Shown: positions 28,847-39,880, counted from the stretch's first letter. The stretch is 64,000 nt of DNA from an uncultured Chloroflexia bacterium (GCA_963801445.1 CAWDEW010000010.1:21338-85337); one strand, 5' to 3'. Numbers and translations: made by a program. Notes: generated from the sequence alone by a model not told the origin.

Positions 28847-29269
28847 TCAGGCCGTCGCGCCGGAGGCGATCGCCCCGTGCGCCGGGCTGTCGCGGAGCGC
28901 CTGCTCGATCGCGTCCGCGAGACGGGCCCCGGTCGGCCGTCCAACCAGCGGCGTGACCCCATGGCACCCGGCCGTCTCGATCCAGGACGGCTCCATGCCG
29001 CTCGCCACGAGCACGATCGGGACATCCGGGTGCATCTCGCGCATCCCCTCGACGAGCGCCCGGGCGCCGTCGGGCTCGCCGGTCATGAACGCGTCGTAGA
29101 CGAGGACGTCCGCCTGCTCCGCGAGCTCGCAGGGGAGGCCCGAGAGGATCGGGCAGCGGGCGCCGATCGGGCCGAGGCACTGGCGCGCGTCGTACCCCCT
29201 CCGCCGCAAGCTGTCGACTTCCTGGTCACAGAGGTCGATGTCGTGGTGGACGACAAGGACGCGGGTCAA
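28847..29269 (-). CDS. Atypical stand-alone receiver-like domain with Cys insert
   Basis: RVLVVHHD, DVLVYD, PDVPIVLV pattern; TTG start with GGAGG; divergent from lexA. Confidence 0.6.
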   Translation of the reverse strand: MTRVLVVHHDIDLCDQEVDSLRRRGYDARQCLGPIGARCPILSGLPCELAEQADVLVYDAFMTGEPDGARALVEGMREMHPDVPIVLVASGMEPSWIETAGCHGVTPLVGRPTGARLADAIEQALRDSPAHGAIASGATA

Positions 29270-29362
29270 CGCTGCACCTCCTGGGCTGGAGTGGTCTGCG
29301 GATCGTCACCCCGTCCGGCCCGCCGCGACAGTGCCGAAGGGCACGACGGCTCCCGCTTCGTC

Positions 29363-29391
29363 TTGACAATCGAACACCCGTTCTGTACAGT
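29363..29391 (+). promoter_or_regulatory. lexA promoter TTGACA-17-TACAGT with LexA box in the spacer
   Basis: TTGACA 29363-29368, GAAC-ACCC-GTTC 29372-29383, TACAGT 29386-29391. Confidence 0.9.
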
Positions 29392-29420
29392 CCCGGCAAC
29401 GGCCCGGAAAGGAGCGTCAC

Positions 29421-30071
29421 GTGACCAGGCACGACGCGGAGCGCAAGCGCAGGATCCTCGACTACATCGCGGCCATGATCCGGGCGACCGGCGTGCCGCC
29501 GTCTGTCCGGGAGATCGCACGCGCCGTCGGCCTCGCCTCCACGTCGGCGGTCCATCACCACCTCCGGGCTCTCGAGGAGGACGGCTACCTGGAACGGGGC
29601 GCGGCCCAGTCGCGCATGATCCGCCTCACTCCCAAGTCCGCGCTGTTGATGGGCCTCTCGTCGGAGCTGACGCCCCAGGGGATGGCATCCGAGGCGCACA
29701 TGCTCCCGGTGATCGGCGAGATCGCCGCAGGCGGGCCAATCGAGGCCTACCAGAACCCCGAGGAATACCAGGCGATCCCGGACCTGCTGGCTCCTTCGGG
29801 CGACGCCTACCTCCTCCGCGTCCGCGGCGACTCCATGATCGAGGCCCACATCGCCGACGGTGACTACGTCGTCATCCGCCCGCAGCAGACCGCCCGGAAC
29901 GGGGACATCGTGGTCGCCCAGGTCGAGGAGAACGCGGTCACGCTGAAGCGGTTCTTCCGGGAGGAAGGGAAGGTTCGCCTGCAACCCGCGAACCCCGCCT
30001 ACCCGCCCCAGTTCTACGACGACGTGCGCGTCCAGGGCAAGCTGATCGGGGTCATCCGCCGGCTCGACTGA
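29421..30071 (+). CDS. lexA: SOS repressor LexA
   Basis: PPSVREIA wHTH, IAAG cleavage site, GDSM (Ser), TLKRF (Lys). Confidence 0.97.
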   Translation: MTRHDAERKRRILDYIAAMIRATGVPPSVREIARAVGLASTSAVHHHLRALEEDGYLERGAAQSRMIRLTPKSALLMGLSSELTPQGMASEAHMLPVIGEIAAGGPIEAYQNPEEYQAIPDLLAPSGDAYLLRVRGDSMIEAHIADGDYVVIRPQQTARNGDIVVAQVEENAVTLKRFFREEGKVRLQPANPAYPPQFYDDVRVQGKLIGVIRRLD

Positions 30072-30072
30072 G

Positions 30073-30147
30073 CCGTCCACAGTCAATCCACGGCGCGGGT
30101 CGATTGCCCGGGGCTGCCGGTGGACAACTCGCGGAGTTCGTGGACAT
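30073..30147. promoter_or_regulatory. Four degenerate DnaA-box-like 9-mers upstream of dnaB
   Basis: ccgtccaca 30073, caatccacg 30084, and inverted ttgtccacc 30119-30127, atgtccacg 30139-30147. Confidence 0.45.
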
Positions 30148-30215
30148 CCCGCTTCCCTGGCCCGCTCCGGTCGGCGACCATGACAGGAGCCCTCGCCCCC
30201 GAATCCGGAGTTCGC

Positions 30216-31577
30216 GTGTCCCTCGATCGCCTGCCGCCCCAGAACATCGAGGCGGAGCAGTCCGTCCTCGGCGCCCTCCTGATCGACCGCGACGCGATCA
30301 TCGAGGTCGCTGACGTCCTGAAGTCGGACGACTTCTACCGCCAGGCGCATGGCCGGATCTACGCCGCCATGATCGACCTCTGGGAGCGGCGCGAGCCGAT
30401 CGACATCGTGACGGTGTCGGAGGTCCTCGAGCGCAACGGCGATCTCGAGCAGGTCGGCGGCAGGGCCTACCTGTCGTCGCTCTCGGAGCAGACGCCGACT
30501 GCCGTCTTCGCCTCGCAGTACGCCCGGATCGTCGAGCGCAAGTCCGTCCTCCGGAACCTCATCGCTGCCGCCGGCCGGATCGCGGGGATCGGGTACGAGG
30601 ATGGTCCCGAGGTCCAGGAGGCGATCGACCGCGCGGAGTCGGAGCTGTTCGCCGTCTCGGAGCGGCGCCTGTCGGCCGGCTTCTCGCCGCTCAAGGCGCT
30701 GCTCCACGAGGCATTCGACAGGCTCGACTACCTGCACACGCATCGCGGAGAGATCAGCGGGATCCGGACCGGGTTCCCCGACCTCGACACGCTGACCGCC
30801 GGGCTCCAGCCGTCGGACCTGGTCGTCCTGGCTGCCCGCCCGTCGGTGGGCAAGACGAGCCTTGCCCTGAACATCGCCGAGTTCGCCGCCATCCGCAACA
30901 CGCCGCGCAAGGCGGTCGGGATCTTCAGCCTCGAGATGAGCAAGGAACAGCTCGTCCTTCGCCTGCTCAGCTCCGTCGGCAACATCGACAGCCAGCGCCT
31001 GCGCTCCGGCTTCCTCGACGAGATGGACTTCGTCGGCGTCAGCCGGGCGATGACCGGCCTCTCGGAGGCCCCGATCTACATCGACGACACGCCGAACATC
31101 AGCACGATGGAGCTCCGCACGAAGGCCCGCCGGCTGCAGGCGGAGGTCGGCCTGGACCTCGTCATCGTCGACTACCTCCAGCTGATGCAGGCGTCCTCGA
31201 CCAGCCGCGACGCCAACCGGGTCCAGGAGGTGAGCGAGATCAGCCGCGGCCTCAAGGCCCTTGCGCGCGAGCTGAAGGTGCCCGTGCTGGCGCTCTCGCA
31301 GCTGTCGCGCCAGCCCGAGATGCGCGAGTCGAAGGAGCCCCGCCTCTCGGACCTGCGCGAGTCCGGCGCCATCGAGCAGGACGCGGACCTGGTGCTGTTC
31401 CTGTGGCGAGAGAAGGAACGGGCGGGCGAAGAGGTCGACGCCGACGGCGAGGTCGTGAAGCTCCGCCTGGCCAAGCACCGCAACGGCCCGACCGGCGAGG
31501 TCGACCTCTGGTTCAAGAAGTCGCAGACGCGCTTCGTCAGCTATGCCGGGGAACGGTTCGCGGGCGCAGCACCGTAG
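30216..31577 (+). CDS. dnaB: Replicative DNA helicase
   Basis: LPPQNIEAEQSVLG, ARPSVGKT, VDYLQLM, SDLRESGAIEQDAD. Confidence 0.98.
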   Translation: MSLDRLPPQNIEAEQSVLGALLIDRDAIIEVADVLKSDDFYRQAHGRIYAAMIDLWERREPIDIVTVSEVLERNGDLEQVGGRAYLSSLSEQTPTAVFASQYARIVERKSVLRNLIAAAGRIAGIGYEDGPEVQEAIDRAESELFAVSERRLSAGFSPLKALLHEAFDRLDYLHTHRGEISGIRTGFPDLDTLTAGLQPSDLVVLAARPSVGKTSLALNIAEFAAIRNTPRKAVGIFSLEMSKEQLVLRLLSSVGNIDSQRLRSGFLDEMDFVGVSRAMTGLSEAPIYIDDTPNISTMELRTKARRLQAEVGLDLVIVDYLQLMQASSTSRDANRVQEVSEISRGLKALARELKVPVLALSQLSRQPEMRESKEPRLSDLRESGAIEQDADLVLFLWREKERAGEEVDADGEVVKLRLAKHRNGPTGEVDLWFKKSQTRFVSYAGERFAGAAP

Positions 31578-31749
31578 CCGGCGCTCGCCGTCGCCGCCCG
31601 GGCGCGCCCTGGCTGCCCGAGCTCGGTCTCGGCGCGTCTCGTCGGGCAGGACCGGCCGGTTCCGGCGCCGCTCCGTGGTCTGAGCTGAGTCCGGACCAGT
31701 CTCGGCAGGCGAATCTGCGCATGCTCTGCGCGCCGTCCGCGTCGGCCCA

Positions 31750-31778
31750 TTGCCAGCCCGCGGGGCCGTCCCTATAGT
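31750..31778 (+). promoter_or_regulatory. Sigma70-type promoter TTGCCA-17-TATAGT
   Basis: -35 at 31750-31755, -10 at 31773-31778; followed by an about 110-nt hairpin-rich leader. Confidence 0.6.
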
Positions 31779-31893
31779 GCCGCGAACGGTTGCGAATTGG
31801 TGACATGACCGGCAGCCGGGCCCGGATCGCCGGGCACCAGCCGGCCCCGGGAGTCGCACCCGGATCCACCGAGGGAGAGGGTTGGCACCAGCC

Positions 31894-32190
31894 GTGTACG
31901 AAGACCGGACCCTGCAGTGTCGCGACTGCGCGGAGAGCTTCATCTTCTCGACCGGGGAGCAGGCGTTCTTCGCCAGCAAGGGGCTCCAGAACGTGCCCCA
32001 GCGCTGCCCGACCTGTCGAGCGGCTGCGCGGCGCGCTCGCACGACCGGCGGACCCCGCGAGTTCCACGCCGCGGTATGTGCCTCGTGCAGCGGCCAGGCC
32101 GTCGTCCCCTTCGCCCCACGATCGGACAAGCCGGTCTACTGCAGCGCCTGCTTCGAGAAGATGCGACCGGCACCCTCGGCGCTCGCCTAG
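31894..32190 (+). CDS. Zinc-ribbon / CxxC-x17-CxxC domain protein
   Basis: EDRTLQCRDC..FIFSTGEQAFF..KG...P.RCPTC and VCASC...VPF.P...KPVYCSACF. Confidence 0.9.
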   Translation: MYEDRTLQCRDCAESFIFSTGEQAFFASKGLQNVPQRCPTCRAAARRARTTGGPREFHAAVCASCSGQAVVPFAPRSDKPVYCSACFEKMRPAPSALA

Positions 32191-32542: not shown

Positions 32543-35500
32543 ATGGCTCACGCGGGCTCCGACCTCACCCTCCGCACCGGTCGCACCGCCGCCGTTCCCG
32601 ACGGCTCGCGATCGCTCGCGCCCTCGCAGCGCGAGCCCCGCCTCGTGGCCGTCGGGCCGGGCCCAGCGATCCCGGACCAGTCGCCCGTGTTCGGCTCGAC
32701 GATGCAGGTGCACGAGTACCCCGTCCAGGACGGCAAGATCCAGCCACCGCTCCTCCCCGAGGAGACGCTCCAGCGCGACCGCCTGCTCGACTGGCTGCAC
32801 GCAAAGGTCCGCGGGCGGCTCGTGCTGATCCTCGCGGACGCCGGCTACGGCAAGACGACGCTGCTGGCCGACTGGACGCGTCGGACGAGGGTGCGAGCGC
32901 TCTGGTATCGCCTGGACGAGCACGACCGGGATTGGCCGGTGTTCATCCGCCACATCGTCGCGGCCGGGCGCGAGATCGACCCGGGCTTCGCACCCCAGAC
33001 GGAGGCGCTCCTGCGCGAGCTGGGCACCCCGCTCACGGATCGCCCGACCGTCGTTCGGACCCTCCAGGGAGAGCTGCAGGCGTGGGCGACCACCGGAACC
33101 GCGCTCGTCCTGGATGATTGGCACGCCGTCGACGACGTGCCCGAGATCCGCGACATCGTCCGGGAGCTGATCCTCCGCGGCCCGGATCGGCTGACCGTCG
33201 TCATCGCCTCCCGGCGACGCCCCACGCTCCCGGTCGCTCGCCTGCGCGCGATCGGCGAGGCCGCGGAGATCAGCACCGACGATCTCCGATTCGACCGCGA
33301 CGAAACCGAGCGTCTCTTCCGCGACAGCTACAAGCACCCGCTCGAGCGAGACCTGCTCGACGATCTGGCGCGCACGACCGACGGCTGGGCCGCGACGCTG
33401 CGCCTCGTCGAGTCGGCCGTTCGCGGCCGACCGCGCGAGGAGGTGCGCGCGGTGATCCGCAGCCTGTCCGGACGCCACGGCGACCTGCACGACTACCTGG
33501 CCGAGGAGGTCGTGGGGCGCATGTCCCTGGAGCAGCAGTCGTTCGTCGAACGGTGCTCGATCCTCGGGGTCGCGACCGCCGAGCTCGCCGCCGTCGCCGC
33601 CCAGGTCTCGGGCGATGAGGCGCGGTCCCACCTCGACGCCGCCGAGTCCTACGGCCTGCTCGCGCGCCGCGGTCGGACCGGTCAGGCCGGCCGACTCTTC
33701 CACCCGCTGGTCCGCACGTTCCTGGAGGGAAGGCTGCAGGACGCCGTCGGCGACGCGGAGGTCCGGGCCACCCACGCGCGGGTCGCCCGCGCTGCCGAGG
33801 CAGTCTCGTGGGCCGTCTCCGGTCACCATTACGCCGCGGCCGGCCTCAACACCGACGTCGCGCGCGTCCTCGCCGCCGCCGTCCCGACCATCCTCGGATC
33901 GGGCGCTCACGAGGAGGCCCGGCATCTTGAAGAGTACCTAGGCGGATCCCACCCAGGCGCGTGGTCCTACGTTCTGGAGGCGCACCGGAAGCTCCGGCTC
34001 GGCGATGTCGCCGGGGCGATCAACGCGGCTAACGCCATTGCACCTCTCCTAGAGTCCGGCGACATGTCCGTTAGCCGTCCCGTCGCGGCGACAGCTCGGA
34101 TGAATGCCTACTACGGCGCCGGCGAGTTCGAGATGGCATACCTCGAGGCCAAGTCAATCGAGTCGGATGGCAGCGAAGAGATCCCCGCGGAGCTTGCCCA
34201 GTCTGTCGTACTTCTGACCGAGTCGATGGTCGATGGTGATTTGAACGTGACTCTCCGGACGTGTCGCGAATTGGCGCGACGGATGTCGCTGCGGGGGCTC
34301 CACCACTACGAGGGGATCTCGTGGGTTAACGCGGGCTGGATCTGCCGAGTCCTGTTCGACTCCGCTGGAGCGAGAGAAGCCGGGCTCAGGGCCGTCGAAT
34401 GTCTGAGCTTCCACATCGTCCGGCCCTGAGATCAGTACCGCGCTCGCGGTCGCGGCGTGGGCCATGGCCCACTCGGGAGATACCAGCGGCGCAGGAGCCA
34501 CTCTGGCGAGAAGTCTGGAAGGTCAGTTCTGGAGCGCTCGGTTCGAGAGCCTTGTCGAGGCCGCCGACGTCCACAGTCCATATGGAGACGCGACCGAGGC
34601 GCGGCGGTTGCTCGACGACGCGGCCCGGGTTCAGGCGCCGAACCCGCGGCAGCGGCTGTTCCACGACTTGGTCAATGGCGAACACCTTGTTCGGGAGGGC
34701 GACCCGAAGGCGGCGCTTTCGATGCTCGACACCATCGCACATGGCACGCCAACCGGTTACCCGGGCTTCTACGTTCGCCTAGAGCTCGCGAGAGTCCACG
34801 CCCGCGTCCGTCTTGGCTGCCTCTCACGCGAGGACGCCGAGAAGGCAGAGCGGCGAGCCCGGCAGCAAGGGGCGGAGGCGGTGTTACCGCTCCTGCACGG
34901 CTTGATTGCCGTCGCCTGGGACAAGGCAGCACATCTTGACTCGCGAATTATGAGACTCGCTGAGACAGAGCCGGCGCTCGTGACCACGTTTGCCGAGGCA
35001 ATCCTGGACCGCAGCGACAGCTTGTCGGAATCCACTATGTCTGAGCTCGCGCGTGTCGCCCAAGTATTCCCCGAGCGATGGCGGCATGCGGCGAGATGCT
35101 CGATCGCAGATCCCGCGCCGAGCGTCCAGGCCAAGGCCGGATTGCTCCTCGAGGCAGTCGGGGATCGATCGGATGTGGCCAGGCTTCGGGAGCTCAGCCG
35201 ACAGCTTAGGGCGCCCTTTGCGAACCCGGACCTTGGGCGCAAGCTCGCGAGGCGCGTGGCCGACCGCGTAGTGGTTGAGGACCTCGGGCGAGTGTCGGTC
35301 CACGTTGGATCCCGAACCATCTCTGGCAGTTCCATTCGCCGAAAGGCTCTGGCACTCCTCTGCTTTCTCGTCTCTCAAAGAGGCTTTGCTGCCTCAAGAG
35401 ATCAGGTCCTGGAGGCAATGTGGCCCGAGTTTGAGCCCGATCAGGCCCTCAATTCCCTACACCAGACGGCGTACTTCCTCCGCCGCGTATTCGAGCAGCC

Positions 35501-35976
35501 ATTCAGTGAGGACACATCGCCCGGGTATTTGCGCACCTGACGGTGAACTCATCTGGCTCGACAGCGAATTGGTGCAGTCACAGAGCAGAACCTTCCGGGA
35601 TCTGATCACAAGCCAGGGTGGAGAAGACGATCCGATCCTCGTGGACAAGATCACGCTGCTCTATGGTGGCCGCTTCGCTCTCGACTTCCTCTATGACGAG
35701 TGGGCGCGGCCTGCGAGAGAGTCGATGCACACCCGCTACGTGGAGGTGGTAGAGCGGTCAGTCACGTCCGATATGAGGTCCGGCCACTTCGGGAGGGCCA
35801 TCACGATCGCAGGACGGGCTCTGGAAGTGGACCCGAGCTTGGACGAGATGGAGAAGAACCTGGTCAAGCTCTACCAGCTGTCCGGCGCACATCGTGCCGC
35901 GGCTGAGCAGTACGCGCATTACGCAGAGACCATGCGCGAGTTGGGCCTCGAGGTCCCGCCGCTGGATCTTCTTTGA
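32543..35976 (+). CDS. Large MalT-like STAND transcriptional regulator: NTPase, helical/TPR-like sensor, C-terminal wHTH plus BTAD; frameshifts near 34410 and 35537
   Basis: KIQPP..LQRDRLL, ADAGYGKTT, LVLDDWH, GWAATLRL, DYLAEEV; C-terminal LGRVSV..RKALALLCFL..SRDQVLEAMWP and LY.G.F..D..YDEW..AR; single-base removals join three ORF-track pieces (about 1140 aa). Confidence 0.85.
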
Positions 35977-36026
35977 GGGGATCGGTAATCTACGAGCGGT
36001 CCAGTGTGCCTAGGTAGGGTTCCGTA

Positions 36027-36056
36027 TTGACCGAGTAGGAGAACAGTACCTACTGT
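36027..36056 (+). promoter_or_regulatory. Promoter TTGACC-18-TACTGT with inverted repeat AGTAGG-N9-CCTACT
   Basis: TTGACC 36027-36032, AGTAGG 36034-36039, CCTACT 36049-36054, TACTGT 36051-36056; UUCG hairpin CTAGTAC-TTCG-GTACTAG at 36068-36085. Confidence 0.6.
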
Positions 36057-36099
36057 CGCGATGACCACTAGTACTTCGGTACTAGGAGGCCGTGATAGG

Positions 36100-36179
36100 T
36101 TCTTCGGGCGCGATGATGCCCGTCCCTGAACTGGGCACTTAGGGGACGGACGGAGCGGCTAGTGCAACCGACCGGCGAA
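36100..36179 (+). ncRNA. Cyclic di-GMP-II riboswitch aptamer
   Basis: P1 TTCTTCGG/CCGGCGAA; ATGATG kink-turn strand; stem CCGTCCCT/AGGGGACGG; loop GGGCACTT pseudoknotting with AGTGC; GAG; TAGTGCAACCGACC; CGC/GCG pairing where the C. acetobutylicum aptamer has AAC/GUU (recalled consensus). Confidence 0.88.
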
Positions 36180-36200
36180 TAAGCAGGTCGGTTTTCGTGT
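36166..36200 (+). terminator. Intrinsic terminator overlapping the riboswitch 3' end
   Basis: AACCGACC (36166-36173) / GGTCGGTT (36186-36193) stem followed by TTCGTGTT. Confidence 0.7.
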
Positions 36201-36292
36201 TGGGGGGTCACGGAAACCCATTGGAGGGCACACGATGGGTCCCGAGTTCAGCGTCAAGCCCTGGTAGCACGGCAAGCAGCGAGTCTTATCGA

Positions 36293-36385
36293 ATGATGAA
36301 GACGCGATTGCTACAGGTCCTCGCGACCATGGCAACCCTCGCCGCCGCCGTGTTGGCTGGTGGCGCGTCGCTGAGGGGTTTCTAG
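36293..36385 (+). CDS. 30-aa putative signalling peptide precursor MMKTRLLQVLATMATLAAAVLAGGASLRGF
   Basis: Basic N-terminus, hydrophobic core, AGGA, short polar tail; sole ORF between riboswitch and HD-GYP gene. Confidence 0.75.
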   Translation: MMKTRLLQVLATMATLAAAVLAGGASLRGF

Positions 36386-36459
36386 GTACCGAAGTCCCAT
36401 TCCGGCCCGGTACGCTCCCGGCTAGCATCATGACGGGTAGCCGCTGACGCCGAGGACGG

Positions 36460-37840
36460 ATGTCTAGATCCCTCAAGCTATACCTCACGGCGCTCGTGAC
36501 CATAGGCGGTCTTGTGATCGTGGTCACGAGCGTTGTGATTCAGCCCGACCAGCGAATCGCGATCGACCTTTCCGGCTCGAGCGCGGTCAATGTTGCGCTC
36601 GGGCTCGGCTTTTGGACCGTCGTGACTCTCGCCGCCTCGGCGTTCCCTGTCACAATGCCCCGCGGCTCCGTCGTGAGTACGTCGATCGCGCCGATGGTGG
36701 CGGTCATGTACCTCGGAGGTCCAGCGGCTGCTGCGATCGTGGCGACCCTTGGGACGACCGAATTGCGAGAGCTGCGAGGTCGCGTCCCCTGGTATGGAAC
36801 GCTGGCAAACCATATCGGGGTCGCTGTTCCGGCAATAGCCGGTGCCGCGGTGATTCGTTGGATTGGCGGGCCGGGTGCGCCCGGGTTGCACGATTTCGCG
36901 GCGACCCTGTTGGGCGGGCTGGTGTTCCATTCGATGAACATCACGCTCTGCCGCCATCAGTGTTGCTCTGCGCCGCGATGAAGGCGTGGCTGGAGTCGTT
37001 CTCGCCGACCTTCGACTCTACTTCCTGTCGGGACTCGCGATTGTCCCTCTGGCTTGGTTGATGGCCCAGCTCTACAACATCGCCGGCGTCGGCTGGTGGG
37101 CGGTACTGCTCGTTGTTCTTCCTGTCTACGTGATGCGGCTAGCCTTGCGACAAGTCGTCGAGATGCGGGAGATGTTCACCCAGACCATTGGGGCGCTCGC
37201 CGGGGCGGTGGATGCGCGGGATGTCTACACGTCGAACCACAGCCATCGGGTCCAGACGATCGCGGTGGACATCGGGCGCGTGATGAAGCTTCCGGAGCAC
37301 GAGATCGAGGCCCTGGAGTGGGGCGGCCTGCTCCATGACATCGGGAAGATCGGGGTGCCGGACAGCGTCCTGCTCAACCCGGGGAAGCTCACCAAGGAAG
37401 AGCGGGCCTCGATGAACGCGCATCCCGTGAAGGGAGCCAAGATCGTCGCGAAGGTCGAGAAGCTGGCGCCGGAGCTGCCGATCATTCGCCACCACCACGA
37501 GTGGTACAACGGGTCCGGGTACCCGGACCGGTTGATGGGCGACGAGATCCCCAAGCTCGCCCGGGTCCTGCACGTCGCCGATGCTTTCGAGGCGATGATC
37601 GCCCAGAGACCCTACCGGATGAGCCCGTTGACGCATGAGCAGGCGATCGCTGAGCTGCGCAAGTTCTCGGGGATCCAGTTCGACCCGGTCGTCGTCGACG
37701 CCTTCGTCAAGACGAAGTGGGCCGACGGGTTCGGGGATTTCAACCGCTCGCACCCGATGCGAACCGTGCCCTACCTCGCCCAGGCCGCGAGCCGGATGGC
37801 GCCGCCGCCCGGGGACGCGGCTCCAGCCGACGCCTCCTGA
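36460..37840 (+). CDS. Membrane-anchored HD-GYP c-di-GMP phosphodiesterase; +1 frameshift near 36950
   Basis: About 6-7 N-terminal TM helices; HSHRV, LHDIGKIG, HHHEWYNGSGYP, ARVLHVADAFEAM; GAGGA RBS; dropping one T in ctc-t-gcc gives ITLAAISVALRRDEGVAGVVLAD. Confidence 0.92.
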
Positions 37841-37852
37841 GCTCGACCGCGA

Positions 37853-39880
37853 GTGCTGTTCGCGGCTCTGATCGTCGGGTTCCTGGCCGGGATCGCGGCC
37901 GGCGGCAAGGTCGACAACCTTCTCGCGGTCCGCCTGCGCTGGGCGCTGGTGATCTTCGGCGCGGTCGCGCTCCGCCTCGGCACCGAGGCCGCGCTCTCTC
38001 GAGGCATCGCCGTCGCCGACCAGCTGCGGGTGCCGCTGCTGGGTGCCGCGTACCTCGTGCTGGCCGTCGGCCTCTGGGTGAACCGATCGCGCCCGGGGAT
38101 GACCCTGGCCCTCGTCGGGATCGGTGCCAACGCGTTCGCGATCCTGGTGAACGGCGGCTACATGCCGGTCTGGAGCGCCAGCCTCATCGCGGCGGGCTTC
38201 CCGGCCGACGAGCCGCTCTCGGCGATCCACAAGGTCCTCTCGGCGGCCGACGTGAGCTTCCTGACGTCGGCGGGGCCACTGGGCGACATCATCCCGATCG
38301 GCCTGGCGCCCCTCCGGAACGTCCTCTCGATCGGCGATGTGCTGCTGGCCGCGGGCCTGGCCTTCTTCCTGTTCGCGAGCCTGGTCCGCCGCCCGGGCGA
38401 GCTGGAGACGCTCGCCGAGCGCGTCCGCACGGGGCCGCTCCCGGCCCGCCCCGTCGCCCTCGGCGGAGTGGTCGCAGACGAGGCGTCACGCACGGTACGG
38501 CCCGGGACCGGGCTGGCCGGCGGGGTGCTGGACGCGGCGTCGGCCATGGACCGCCCGATGATGCTCGGCGGCTCGGGGGCCGGGATCGCCGTGCCGTCGC
38601 CGACCCGGGCCGTGGTGCTCCGCCGGCCGGTCGGGATCCGGGAGCGGGCGCTGCGCCACCCGTACGTGCGGCTGGCGTTGAACGGACCCTTCACCGCGCT
38701 CTGGACGGGCCAGGTCGTCAGCCTGTTCGGGGATCGGGTACACCAGATCGCCCTGGCCGCGCTGGTGCTCGGGACGACCGGGTCGGCGCTGGCGGCGGGC
38801 CTCGTGTTCGCGGCTGCCGCCCTCCCGAACCTCCTGTTCGGTCCGTTCGCCGGCGTGCTCGTGGACCGCTGGAACCAGAAGCACGTGATGATCGCCAGCG
38901 ACCTCATCCGGGCCGCGATCGTGCTGTCCATCCCGGCCAGCACGGCAATGAACGTCACCCTGGTCTATCCGCTGGTCTTCGTGCTCACGACCGTCTCGAT
39001 CTTCTTCCGCCCCGCGCGGACCGCCGTGATCCCGCGCCTCGTGCGGGAGGACGAGCTGACCGCCGCGAACTCCGCGACGTGGATCGGCGAGACCCTCGCC
39101 GATGTCGCGGGCTACCCGATCGCCGGGCTGTTCGTGGGGGTCCTCGGCGGTGCGGTGGCGGTGGCCTTCTGGGTCGACTCGGCGACCTACGTCGCGTCGG
39201 CCGCGCTGATCGCGGTGACGGCCATCCCGCCCGTGGTGCGGACGCTGGCTGATGCCGGCAAGGGCATCGCGGGCTTCCGCCGTGACCTGGTCGCCGGCTG
39301 GACCTTCCTCCGTCACGAACCCGTCCTGCTCGCGAACACGCTCCAGGCGATCGTCGGGCAGGCGACGATCGGCGTCGCGATCACGCTCGTGCCCGTCTTC
39401 GCCCGGGACGTCCTGAGGGATTCCTCGCTCCCGTGGGAGACCACCTACGCCTACATGGAGGCGGTCCTCGGGATGGGCAACCTGATCGGCGGCTTCTTCA
39501 TCGGCCTGCTGGGCGCCCGGCTCGCGAAGGGGCGGATGGTGATCGTCGGCTACGTCGCCTACGGCCTGCTCGTCGCCGGCTTCGCATTCGCCGGCAACGT
39601 GGCCATCGCGATCGGGCTCTCGTTCGGGATGGGGATCGCGAACATGGTGTTCGTCATCCCGACCCAGACGCTCTTCCAGGAGCGAACCCCGAACGAGCTC
39701 CTGGGGCGAGTCGTGAGCTTCCGCTTCTCGGCGGTCTTCGGCGCGATGACGCTCGCGATGGCGGTCGGGGGGATCCTCGGCGAGGCGTTCGGTGCGCCGC
39801 TCGTCCTCGGGGCGTTCGGCCTCCTGACCGCGTTCGCCGGGCTGGCCGGCACGGCAAGTCGCCCACTGCGCGACGCGTAG
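37853..39880 (+). CDS. DUF5317 domain fused to an MFS transporter
   Basis: N-terminal GIGAN..ILVNGGYMPV and LGDIIP...VLSIGDVLL (DUF5317 hallmarks); C-terminal FTALWTGQVVSLFGD, GVLVDRWN, LLGRVVS (12-TM MFS). Confidence 0.85.
   Translation: MLFAALIVGFLAGIAAGGKVDNLLAVRLRWALVIFGAVALRLGTEAALSRGIAVADQLRVPLLGAAYLVLAVGLWVNRSRPGMTLALVGIGANAFAILVNGGYMPVWSASLIAAGFPADEPLSAIHKVLSAADVSFLTSAGPLGDIIPIGLAPLRNVLSIGDVLLAAGLAFFLFASLVRRPGELETLAERVRTGPLPARPVALGGVVADEASRTVRPGTGLAGGVLDAASAMDRPMMLGGSGAGIAVPSPTRAVVLRRPVGIRERALRHPYVRLALNGPFTALWTGQVVSLFGDRVHQIALAALVLGTTGSALAAGLVFAAAALPNLLFGPFAGVLVDRWNQKHVMIASDLIRAAIVLSIPASTAMNVTLVYPLVFVLTTVSIFFRPARTAVIPRLVREDELTAANSATWIGETLADVAGYPIAGLFVGVLGGAVAVAFWVDSATYVASAALIAVTAIPPVVRTLADAGKGIAGFRRDLVAGWTFLRHEPVLLANTLQAIVGQATIGVAITLVPVFARDVLRDSSLPWETTYAYMEAVLGMGNLIGGFFIGLLGARLAKGRMVIVGYVAYGLLVAGFAFAGNVAIAIGLSFGMGIANMVFVIPTQTLFQERTPNELLGRVVSFRFSAVFGAMTLAMAVGGILGEAFGAPLVLGAFGLLTAFAGLAGTASRPLRDA

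Follow-up and report, generated by a model that had tools for sequence, protein, structure and literature searches.

Two adjoining, very old allelic sensor modules as the probable source of a low-GC segment in a conserved c-di-GMP locus of Candidatus Limnocylindria

Specificity cassettes with breakpoints inside genes are textbook material in a few quorum-sensing loci of Firmicutes. In agr, where the variable block runs from the 3' end of agrB through agrD to the 5' end of agrC, and in ComQXP and ComCD (PMC5629823), discrete and deeply diverged classes are found within a species, the block takes in a small peptide open reading frame (ORF) together with the membrane sensor half of a neighbouring signalling protein, and the breakpoints lie within genes at domain borders, between conserved output domains and flanks around which the blocks are reshuffled by recombination. 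These traits recur in a locus that we analysed in a stretch of 64,000 nucleotides (hereafter, the window) from an uncultured Chloroflexia bacterium (GCA_963801445.1, CAWDEW010000010.1:21338-85337), where a low-GC segment at 33983-37140 begins inside the gene of a MalT-type STAND regulator and ends inside that of an HD-GYP protein. We conclude that this segment is probably the footprint of two allelic input modules of great age, lying side by side within a conserved cyclic di-GMP (c-di-GMP) locus of Candidatus Limnocylindria (Chloroflexota). The locus differs from the Firmicutes systems in its host phylum, in its output, which is predicted to be an HD-GYP c-di-GMP phosphodiesterase and not a histidine kinase, in having a second, independent allelic module within the cytoplasmic STAND regulator, and in the c-di-GMP-II riboswitch that lies between the modules. 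A description of this polymorphism was not found in a literature search.

The regulator also has counterparts among better-known proteins. In AfsR the SARP module is N-terminal. Like the AfsR-type SARPs, the regulator is a large activator in which a winged helix-turn-helix (wHTH) and BTAD are joined to TPR-like repeats and a STAND NTPase; unlike AfsR, it has the inverse domain order, with the SARP module at the C-terminus, and its NTPase is of the MalT type. With MalT of Escherichia coli it shares a homologous NOD and the order of NOD, helical-repeat sensor and DNA-binding domain, whereas its C-terminus is an OmpR-type wHTH with BTAD where MalT has a LuxR-type helix-turn-helix. The allelic breakpoint falls just past the NOD, which is presumably where the sensor domain of MalT begins, and we know of no sensor-domain dimorphism described in MalT-like regulators. 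The relationship to MalT is seen in a phmmer search, in which residues 12-380 of an ortholog (P0003) match MalT (8BOB) over ~370 aa with E 2.5e-33. The sensor domains of fungal and plant NOD-like receptors show balancing selection or trans-species polymorphism (PMC13449251, PMC12222747). As in those receptors, a conserved NOD is joined here to old and highly diverged sensor alleles that are exchanged between lineages; unlike those receptors, which act in cell death and allorecognition and diversify by repeat shuffling, this is a bacterial transcription activator with non-repetitive replacement of whole-domain alleles.

The coding features of the locus, in window coordinates, are as follows.

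32543-35976, plus strand: the regulator, a single gene of ~1140 codons (NOD, TPR-like sensor, OmpR-type wHTH, BTAD)
32543-33982, plus strand: N-terminal half of the regulator, a MalT-type STAND NTPase (NOD, with nucleotide-binding, helical and winged-helix parts), recognised by AAA_16 and Walker A
33983-35976, plus strand: allelic block 1, comprising the TPR-like sensor, wHTH (Trans_reg_C) and BTAD, delimited by Pfam matches, divergence and breakpoints
36460-37840, plus strand: the HD-GYP gene, whose orthologs are intact at 439-531 aa
36460-37140, plus strand: coding part of allelic block 2, the multi-pass, MASE9-like membrane N-terminal half, collinear with orthologs in two frames
37141-37840, plus strand: HD-GYP catalytic domain with HDIGK ... 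GSGYP (HD_5 132 bits, HD 79 bits)
37853-39880, plus strand: DUF5317-MFS fusion, the conserved right flank (Pfam DUF5317, MFS_1, MFS_3)

The whole genome of the window's organism comprises 3.70 Mb with a mean GC content of 72.6% (standard deviation among equal-sized windows 2.5%, n = 7307). At 63.0% GC, the segment 33983-37140 has z = -3.83 and belongs to the lowest 0.34% of these windows. An initial annotation of the stretch had placed a lower-GC segment at 33900-37200, with boundaries inside genes, from hand counts, all six of which were exact on recounting (32/60 GC in both 34201-34260 and 35341-35400, 45/60 in 33781-33840 and 47/60 in 38461-38520; 8/20 A/T-ending codons in 36781-36840 and 3/19 in 37381-37440). 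Frame-resolved composition revealed that the dip is mainly a drop in GC at codon position 3 (GC3). The NTPase part of the regulator has a GC3 of ~0.91, which drops from ~33900 on to 0.68-0.76 across the sensor, wHTH and BTAD parts; for the HD-GYP gene the values are 0.72 (membrane half) and 0.89 (HD domain), and in this window DUF5317-MFS, the next gene downstream, has 0.94-0.95. The non-coding leader of ~480 nt between the regulator and the HD-GYP gene, at 61% GC, completes the trough. Both edges do lie inside genes, and breakpoints mapped from other genomes, at 33923-34034 and ~37140-37185, came within ~100 nt of the boundaries first proposed.

The same trough was present at the orthologous locus in 14 of 14 genus relatives. 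In these loci GC3 was low in every genome in the first sensor part (0.67-0.82) and the membrane half (0.65-0.81), and the remainder of the regulator was low (0.61-0.78) or high (0.80-0.95) according to allele. Short-read metagenome contigs gave 0.65-0.77 for the blocks and 0.86-0.93 for the flanks, with GC at codon positions 1 and 2 almost flat. Among 74 further Limnocylindria genomes, GC3 of the membrane half averaged 0.73 compared to 0.91 for the HD domain and was lower in 73 of the 74, and that of the sensor was 0.69 compared to 0.83 for the NTPase (lower in 42/44). The low-GC trough is a property of the locus and not of the window's genome. Its presence across relatives therefore excludes a recent island, a chimeric join or decay in that genome as its cause, and because it is universal at the locus a foreign origin of the low GC3 is likewise ruled out.

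Between the two genes lies a leader with several small elements.

36027-36032, plus strand: -35-like TTGACC, kept in all aligned loci, a putative promoter
36068-36085, plus strand: perfect 7-bp hairpin with a UUCG loop, CTAGTAC-TTCG-GTACTAG, the stem kept in all relatives
36097-36182, plus strand: c-di-GMP-II riboswitch aptamer RF01786 (covariance model 61.8 bits, gathering cut-off 53.5, E 1.9e-12)
36168-36199, plus strand: terminator-like stem CCGACC...GGTCGG followed by the U run TTTTCGTG, read from the sequence and overlapping the 3' end of the aptamer
36235-36267, plus strand: 10-aa upstream ORF (uORF) MGPEFSVKPW with stop codon, conserved in alignments and preceded by a Shine-Dalgarno-like GGAGG
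36293-36385, plus strand: 30-aa ORF MMKTRLLQVLATMATLAAAVLAGGASLRGF with stop codon, conserved in all loci and part of block 2

Comparison among genomes established that the alleles fall into discrete classes, each under purifying selection, that the breakpoints are sharp and lie inside genes, that the trees of the domains disagree, and that the two blocks assort independently. In a DNA alignment of 15 genomes at the genus level, mean pairwise nucleotide identity along the locus was distributed as follows.

NTPase: 72-80%
Sensor, 33850-35200: 43-57%
wHTH: 74%
BTAD: 59-66%
Riboswitch: 84%
uORF, peptide and membrane half: 51-70%
HD domain: 75-87%

Identity thus falls twice, at 33850-35200 and again at 36400-37000, with the wHTH and the riboswitch as conserved peaks between. 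We also drew full-length regulators (>1000 family members) from public assemblies and compared them in 30-aa windows. Pairs such as P0003/P0006, P0001/P0002, P0013/P0017 and P0041/P0048 shared 93-100% identity across the NOD, after which the figure dropped to 13-50% for the sensor and 33-83% for the DNA-binding half; protein pairs with a 100% identical N-terminus had sensors that matched at 23-50%. At the nucleotide level, two loci from different samples (L035 and L121) matched at 99-100% from 130 nt ahead of the regulator gene through its first ~1260-1350 nt, at ~50% from there to the stop codon, and at 99% directly beyond, a pattern repeated by a second pair (L122/L123). The left breakpoint of block 1 fell exactly at residue 481 (nucleotide 33983) in four independent pairs, and its right end is the stop codon. 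In one further pair (P0049/P0050) the sensor alone was swapped (residues ~498-840), the DNA-binding half remaining 97.6% identical.

Block 2, at ~36255-37140, comprises the end of the uORF, the 30-aa ORF and the membrane half of the HD-GYP protein. Its left edge is formed by the last uORF codons, which end in KPW-stop in allele a and KGF-stop in allele b, and its right breakpoint lies at residues 226-241 of the HD-GYP protein (~37140-37185 in the window). Among 118 intact HD-GYP proteins, those with HD domains at least 97% identical had membrane halves with identities of either ~0.45-0.47 or at least 0.87, a bimodal distribution. The membrane half of the window belongs to class a (460 aa). Between this class and class b (465 aa), membrane halves share 41-54% identity and HD domains as much as 100%.

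The promoter and riboswitch form a conserved island that separates the two blocks. This can be seen in a comparison of loci L035 (regulator allele A, membrane allele a) and L037 (B, b), in which the flanks are 90-99% identical, the sensor 45-54%, the wHTH/BTAD 59-73%, the promoter and riboswitch 98%, the stretch from the last uORF codons to the end of the membrane half 36-68%, and the sequence beyond 80-96%. A recombinant locus (L039) joins regulator allele A to membrane allele b. The combinations A-a, B-b and A-b are therefore all represented, indicating that blocks 1 and 2 assort independently, and three more loci (L113, L078 and L024) pair A-like regulators with yet other membrane classes. 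The single cassette envisaged in the initial annotation thus has to be replaced by two modules. At the genus level, L025 and L026 share a divergent block 1 though nested among others by their flanks, and L029 and L030 (and L032) share a distinct block 2. When 80 further genome loci were classified by allele, most proved to belong to other genera and to carry unrelated sensor alleles (~30% aa identity). Reference-guided frame correction was unreliable in block 1 of L024, L028 and L034, where it gave spurious stops, and intact proteins from short-read assemblies were used instead.

The domain trees agree with exchange of whole modules. Sensor sequences formed four classes on long stems (0.45-0.8 substitutions per site) that were interleaved on the NOD tree, where they required 12 changes compared to a minimum of 3. 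Approximately unbiased (AU) tests rejected monophyly of the sensor classes on the NTPase (p 6e-5 to 1e-48, log-likelihood gaps of 119-432). Membrane classes mapped onto the HD tree with 19 changes compared to 3 (AU p 2.6e-4), and classes A/B and 1/2 each occurred on several NTPase backgrounds. An exchangeable hypervariable unit between conserved domains, as first supposed for this segment, is borne out by these results, since allele classes are reshuffled relative to both the NTPase and the HD-GYP domain; neither congruent trees with uniform divergence nor a chimeric join was found.

Within each class the alleles are under purifying selection, with dN/dS of 0.12-0.17 in the sensor, 0.04-0.07 in the DNA-binding half and ~0.2 in the membrane half, compared to 0.06-0.10 in the NOD. 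Relative to the adjacent NOD, within-class dS in the blocks is raised by a factor of 1.3-3.6, and dN is ~3-fold that of the flank. Comparisons between classes reach saturation of dS, and flank dS is 0.25; it follows that coalescence is much older for the alleles than for the sequence on either side. Such deep coalescence is the pattern expected of long-maintained alleles whose flanks have been homogenised by recombination. We infer that the classes may be kept by balancing or frequency-dependent selection acting on what both sensors recognise.

The explanation that we propose has the following form. One module is the sensor and DNA-binding half of the MalT-type STAND regulator; the other consists of the end of the leader uORF, the ORF of the 30-aa putative membrane peptide and, from the predicted HD-GYP phosphodiesterase, the MASE9-like half that forms the membrane sensor. 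What carries the output is conserved: the NTPase, the HD-GYP domain, the DUF5317-MFS gene, and the promoter together with the c-di-GMP-II riboswitch. These parts would serve as homology arms, at which homologous recombination would move whole modules among genomes, leaving near-identical genomes with alleles that differ at about half of their nucleotides. From its domain content, the STAND-SARP regulator may activate the riboswitch-gated operon, and the HD-GYP enzyme may lower c-di-GMP, such that a c-di-GMP homeostat common to all strains would receive different signals in different strains.

The trough itself would follow if, in this genome of 73% GC, recombination were rarer in the diverged alleles than in the sequence flanking them, with correspondingly less GC-biased gene conversion. 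For bacteria, a connection of GC3 with recombination has been put forward as a hypothesis with genome-wide evidence (PMC4450053), and reduced GC-biased gene conversion is, in our inference, the simplest account of the low GC3. Class 1, the commonest regulator class in one clade, has the highest GC3 (0.80-0.95), which is consistent with this account. A GC3 difference of 0.2 arises inside one ORF, and is therefore not due to expression-linked codon selection. The composition of membrane proteins was considered as another cause and rejected, as the DUF5317-MFS gene keeps GC3 at 0.93-0.97 in the genus loci and short-read contigs.

Two alternatives would dispense with long-maintained alleles. If weakly constrained domains simply evolved fast or under relaxed selection, with no exchange, the low GC could reflect weak constraint or the decay of a pseudogene in the window's genome; within a class the blocks do outpace their flanks, in the proportions given above, the three frameshifts of the window are confined to the blocks, and the regulator of one relative (G002) is cut by an insertion sequence (IS). 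Such a process would not account for identity that falls from 99-100% to ~50% in under 100 nt and then recovers as abruptly, for bimodal identities or for incongruent trees, and the short-read contigs carry intact ORFs with purifying selection and the same GC3 trough; we consider it very improbable. Still less credence can be given to a recent foreign island from a lower-GC donor, or to a chimeric join in the assembly of this metagenome-assembled genome (MAG), which we hold to be extremely improbable. Low GC relative to the genome is a classic island signature. Against this, the locus is syntenic and the trough is found in every relative examined, there are no mobility genes at the edges, which lie inside genes that continue collinearly, an independent run contains exact pieces of the block of 156 nt and 47 nt, and no closer allele was found outside the lineage.

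Other readings accept the polymorphism and differ as to what maintains it, and they turn in part on the 30-aa ORF. In alleles a and b this ORF reads MKTRL(I/L)QLL(A/V)T...AAAALAGGASLKGF and MKTRLLRLLAVASTIGAAV(I/L)AGGASLKGF, respectively, with a hydrophobic core that differs and a tail, AGGASLKGF, that is identical between these two best-sampled alleles; tail variants across the genus are SLKGF, SLRGF, SLNGF, SLKGL and SLRAF (K, R or N at position -3 and F or L at the end). In one locus (L036) the ORF is annotated as a 29-aa gene. The initial annotation had likened the segment to an agr-type block of maturase, peptide and sensor, and had taken it to imply pherotype diversity. The ORF would then encode a secreted signal, with variants that pair with matching membrane-sensor alleles, as in agr and ComQXP, and so define signalling groups. 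A small ORF and a membrane sensor do co-vary in one allelic block, and the SLNGF/L tails accompany the distinct membrane allele of L029, L030 and L032, in keeping with a tail that varies genus-wide. Unlike the Firmicutes systems, however, the locus has no gene for a maturation or export enzyme within 33983-37140, the DUF5317-MFS gene being part of the conserved flank, and alleles a and b, which differ by ~55% in the membrane half, share the same tail, an objection that counts only if the tail is the signal. Block 1 of the cytoplasmic regulator is equally polymorphic and assorts independently, which a single peptide-receptor unit does not predict. We therefore regard a peptide pherotype as rather unlikely, and a membrane mini-protein that co-evolves with the membrane domain would fit the 30-aa ORF at least as well as a secreted signal. 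As another possibility, to be entertained tentatively and at low probability, the surface membrane sensor and the NLR- or Avs-like STAND sensor may have been diversified by phages, toxins or other antagonists that bind them, through negative frequency-dependent selection. Receptor evasion of this kind agrees with the presence of discrete alleles of great age where a STAND NTPase and a membrane protein have their recognition domains, the output domains being conserved, and with the analogous balancing selection on sensor domains in fungal NLRs (PMC13449251). An arms race is harder to reconcile with a regulator that ends in a transcription-activator module, wHTH-BTAD, and not in a killing effector, or with within-class dN/dS well under 1, and no defence genes were seen adjoining the locus.

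Several observations weigh against our own interpretation of long-maintained allelic modules. The allele groups used in the AU tests were named only once the trees had been seen. The case for a balanced polymorphism draws on the depth and sharing of alleles, and that for their segregation within one population on contigs from different samples with 99-100% identical flanks. A persistently different mutational or selective regime in the blocks would yield the same GC3 pattern. The block-1 allele of the window is a singleton, its best match among 5.8 billion proteins being 40% identical in amino acids, and with its three frameshifts the window's copy may be inactive.

These frameshifts lie near 34405-34410 and 35521-35531 in the regulator and near 36945-36953 in the HD-GYP gene. 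Their clustering in the blocks, with eight flanking genes intact and no shift in more than 8 kb of coding flank, points to real inactivation, as does the IS-cut regulator of G002. That gene is of B type and otherwise 95.5% identical to P0006; its 1.64-kb insertion at residue 787 (4537-6177 of L022, G002:C2) contains, in the opposite orientation, a transposase (DDE_Tnp_1_4, 191 bits). Consensus error is suggested by the MAGs of relatives, mostly long-read 'MFD' bins, which have frameshifts even in conserved flank genes, and by a 90%-identical contig of another run that is without one base at 36949, the site of the third shift. A search of public reads for runs holding the stretch or block 1 returned only low-depth Logan contigs, which cover no block-1 frameshift site. 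We lean slightly towards consensus error as the source of the three shifts, and our main conclusion is unaffected by the choice. All three occur in non-homopolymer contexts that contain CTG (GTCTGAGCT, CACCTGACGG and GCTCTGCCGC); this shared context could reflect a systematic base-calling effect or be a coincidence.

The regulator is one ORF of 1090-1194 aa in six MAGs of the genus and in every short-read contig examined, and the window's regulator is collinear, across three frames, with intact orthologs of 1150-1194 aa. Its true start is likely near 32699. The NTPase contains the Walker A motif GYGKTT, with an AAA_16 match of 25.5 bits that lies under the Pfam cut-off, and WHD_MalT is listed among the precomputed domains of the regulator family. 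At the C-terminus the order wHTH then BTAD is that of the SARP family (BTAD 34.5 bits, cut-off 22.1; Trans_reg_C 23.7-25.8 bits, slightly under the cut-off of 26.2), and the Pfam search found no LuxR-type helix-turn-helix there. A paralog of the STAND regulator in the window's genome (G000), at G000:C9:29296-30232, is in two adjoining pieces (open frames of 172 and 523 aa), and is another split gene in the same assembly; at least five further paralogs are present. On the contig of the split paralog, ~6-19 kb is the lowest-GC stretch of the genome, at 52-61% over ~13 kb, far below the locus studied here.

In the HD-GYP protein, both the HD and GYP motifs are present in the frame 36986-37840, from which phosphodiesterase activity can be predicted. 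MASE9 (PF20972, cut-off 24.3) matches one family member at 32.3 bits (P0197) and another at 17.3 bits (P0145); an allele a protein (P0143) and the window's piece gave no match. The c-di-GMP-II riboswitch occurs at the same position in 12/12 relatives, with 61.9-68.7 bits. The terminator-like stem that overlaps its aptamer is a candidate for the expression platform, and the hairpin just 5' of the riboswitch could act as an operator or could stabilise the 5' terminus as a stem. The uORF and the 30-aa ORF both end in K-G-F-stop in most genomes, and the nucleotide motif AAGGG(C/G)TTCT(A/G)(A/G) is thus repeated; it might be an RNA or protein-binding element, instead of or besides any coding role.

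The genes of the locus are syntenic in the order LexA, DnaB, dodecin, regulator, HD-GYP and MFS. A 967-aa ORF on the minus strand (29226-32129) has no Pfam match and is a shadow ORF opposite the genuine LexA (29421-30068) and DnaB (30216-31553) genes on the plus strand. A literature search found no paper mentioning DUF5317.

The population-genetic architecture of the Firmicutes specificity cassettes is now found in an uncultured class of soil and freshwater Chloroflexota with a different signalling chemistry, in which c-di-GMP turnover would lie behind a riboswitch, and it occurs twice side by side, once in the sensor half of a STAND activator. Alleles that differ in the input domain alone offer a handle on what orphan sensors recognise. 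The locus also represents a natural experiment on GC3, with ~0.9 where alleles of one transcript would recombine freely and ~0.7 where they would not, a difference that GC-biased gene conversion predicts and expression-linked codon selection does not; in practice, a composition trough with intragenic edges can flag balanced polymorphism and not horizontal transfer. It is conceivable, though we think it improbable, that the locus is a two-key system of social or environmental discrimination built into c-di-GMP signalling, in which groups for signalling or recognition among conspecific Limnocylindria would be set by receptor modules that can be interchanged, namely a cytoplasmic STAND sensor that brings its own DNA-binding half and a membrane sensor accompanied by a mini-protein that co-evolves with it. 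If this were true, a pherotype-like polymorphism would for the first time be seen outside the quorum sensing of Firmicutes, and for the first time acting via a riboswitch-gated HD-GYP phosphodiesterase; intragenic GC3 troughs could then serve, across whole genomes of high-GC bacteria, to pick out balanced alleles in which recombination is suppressed.

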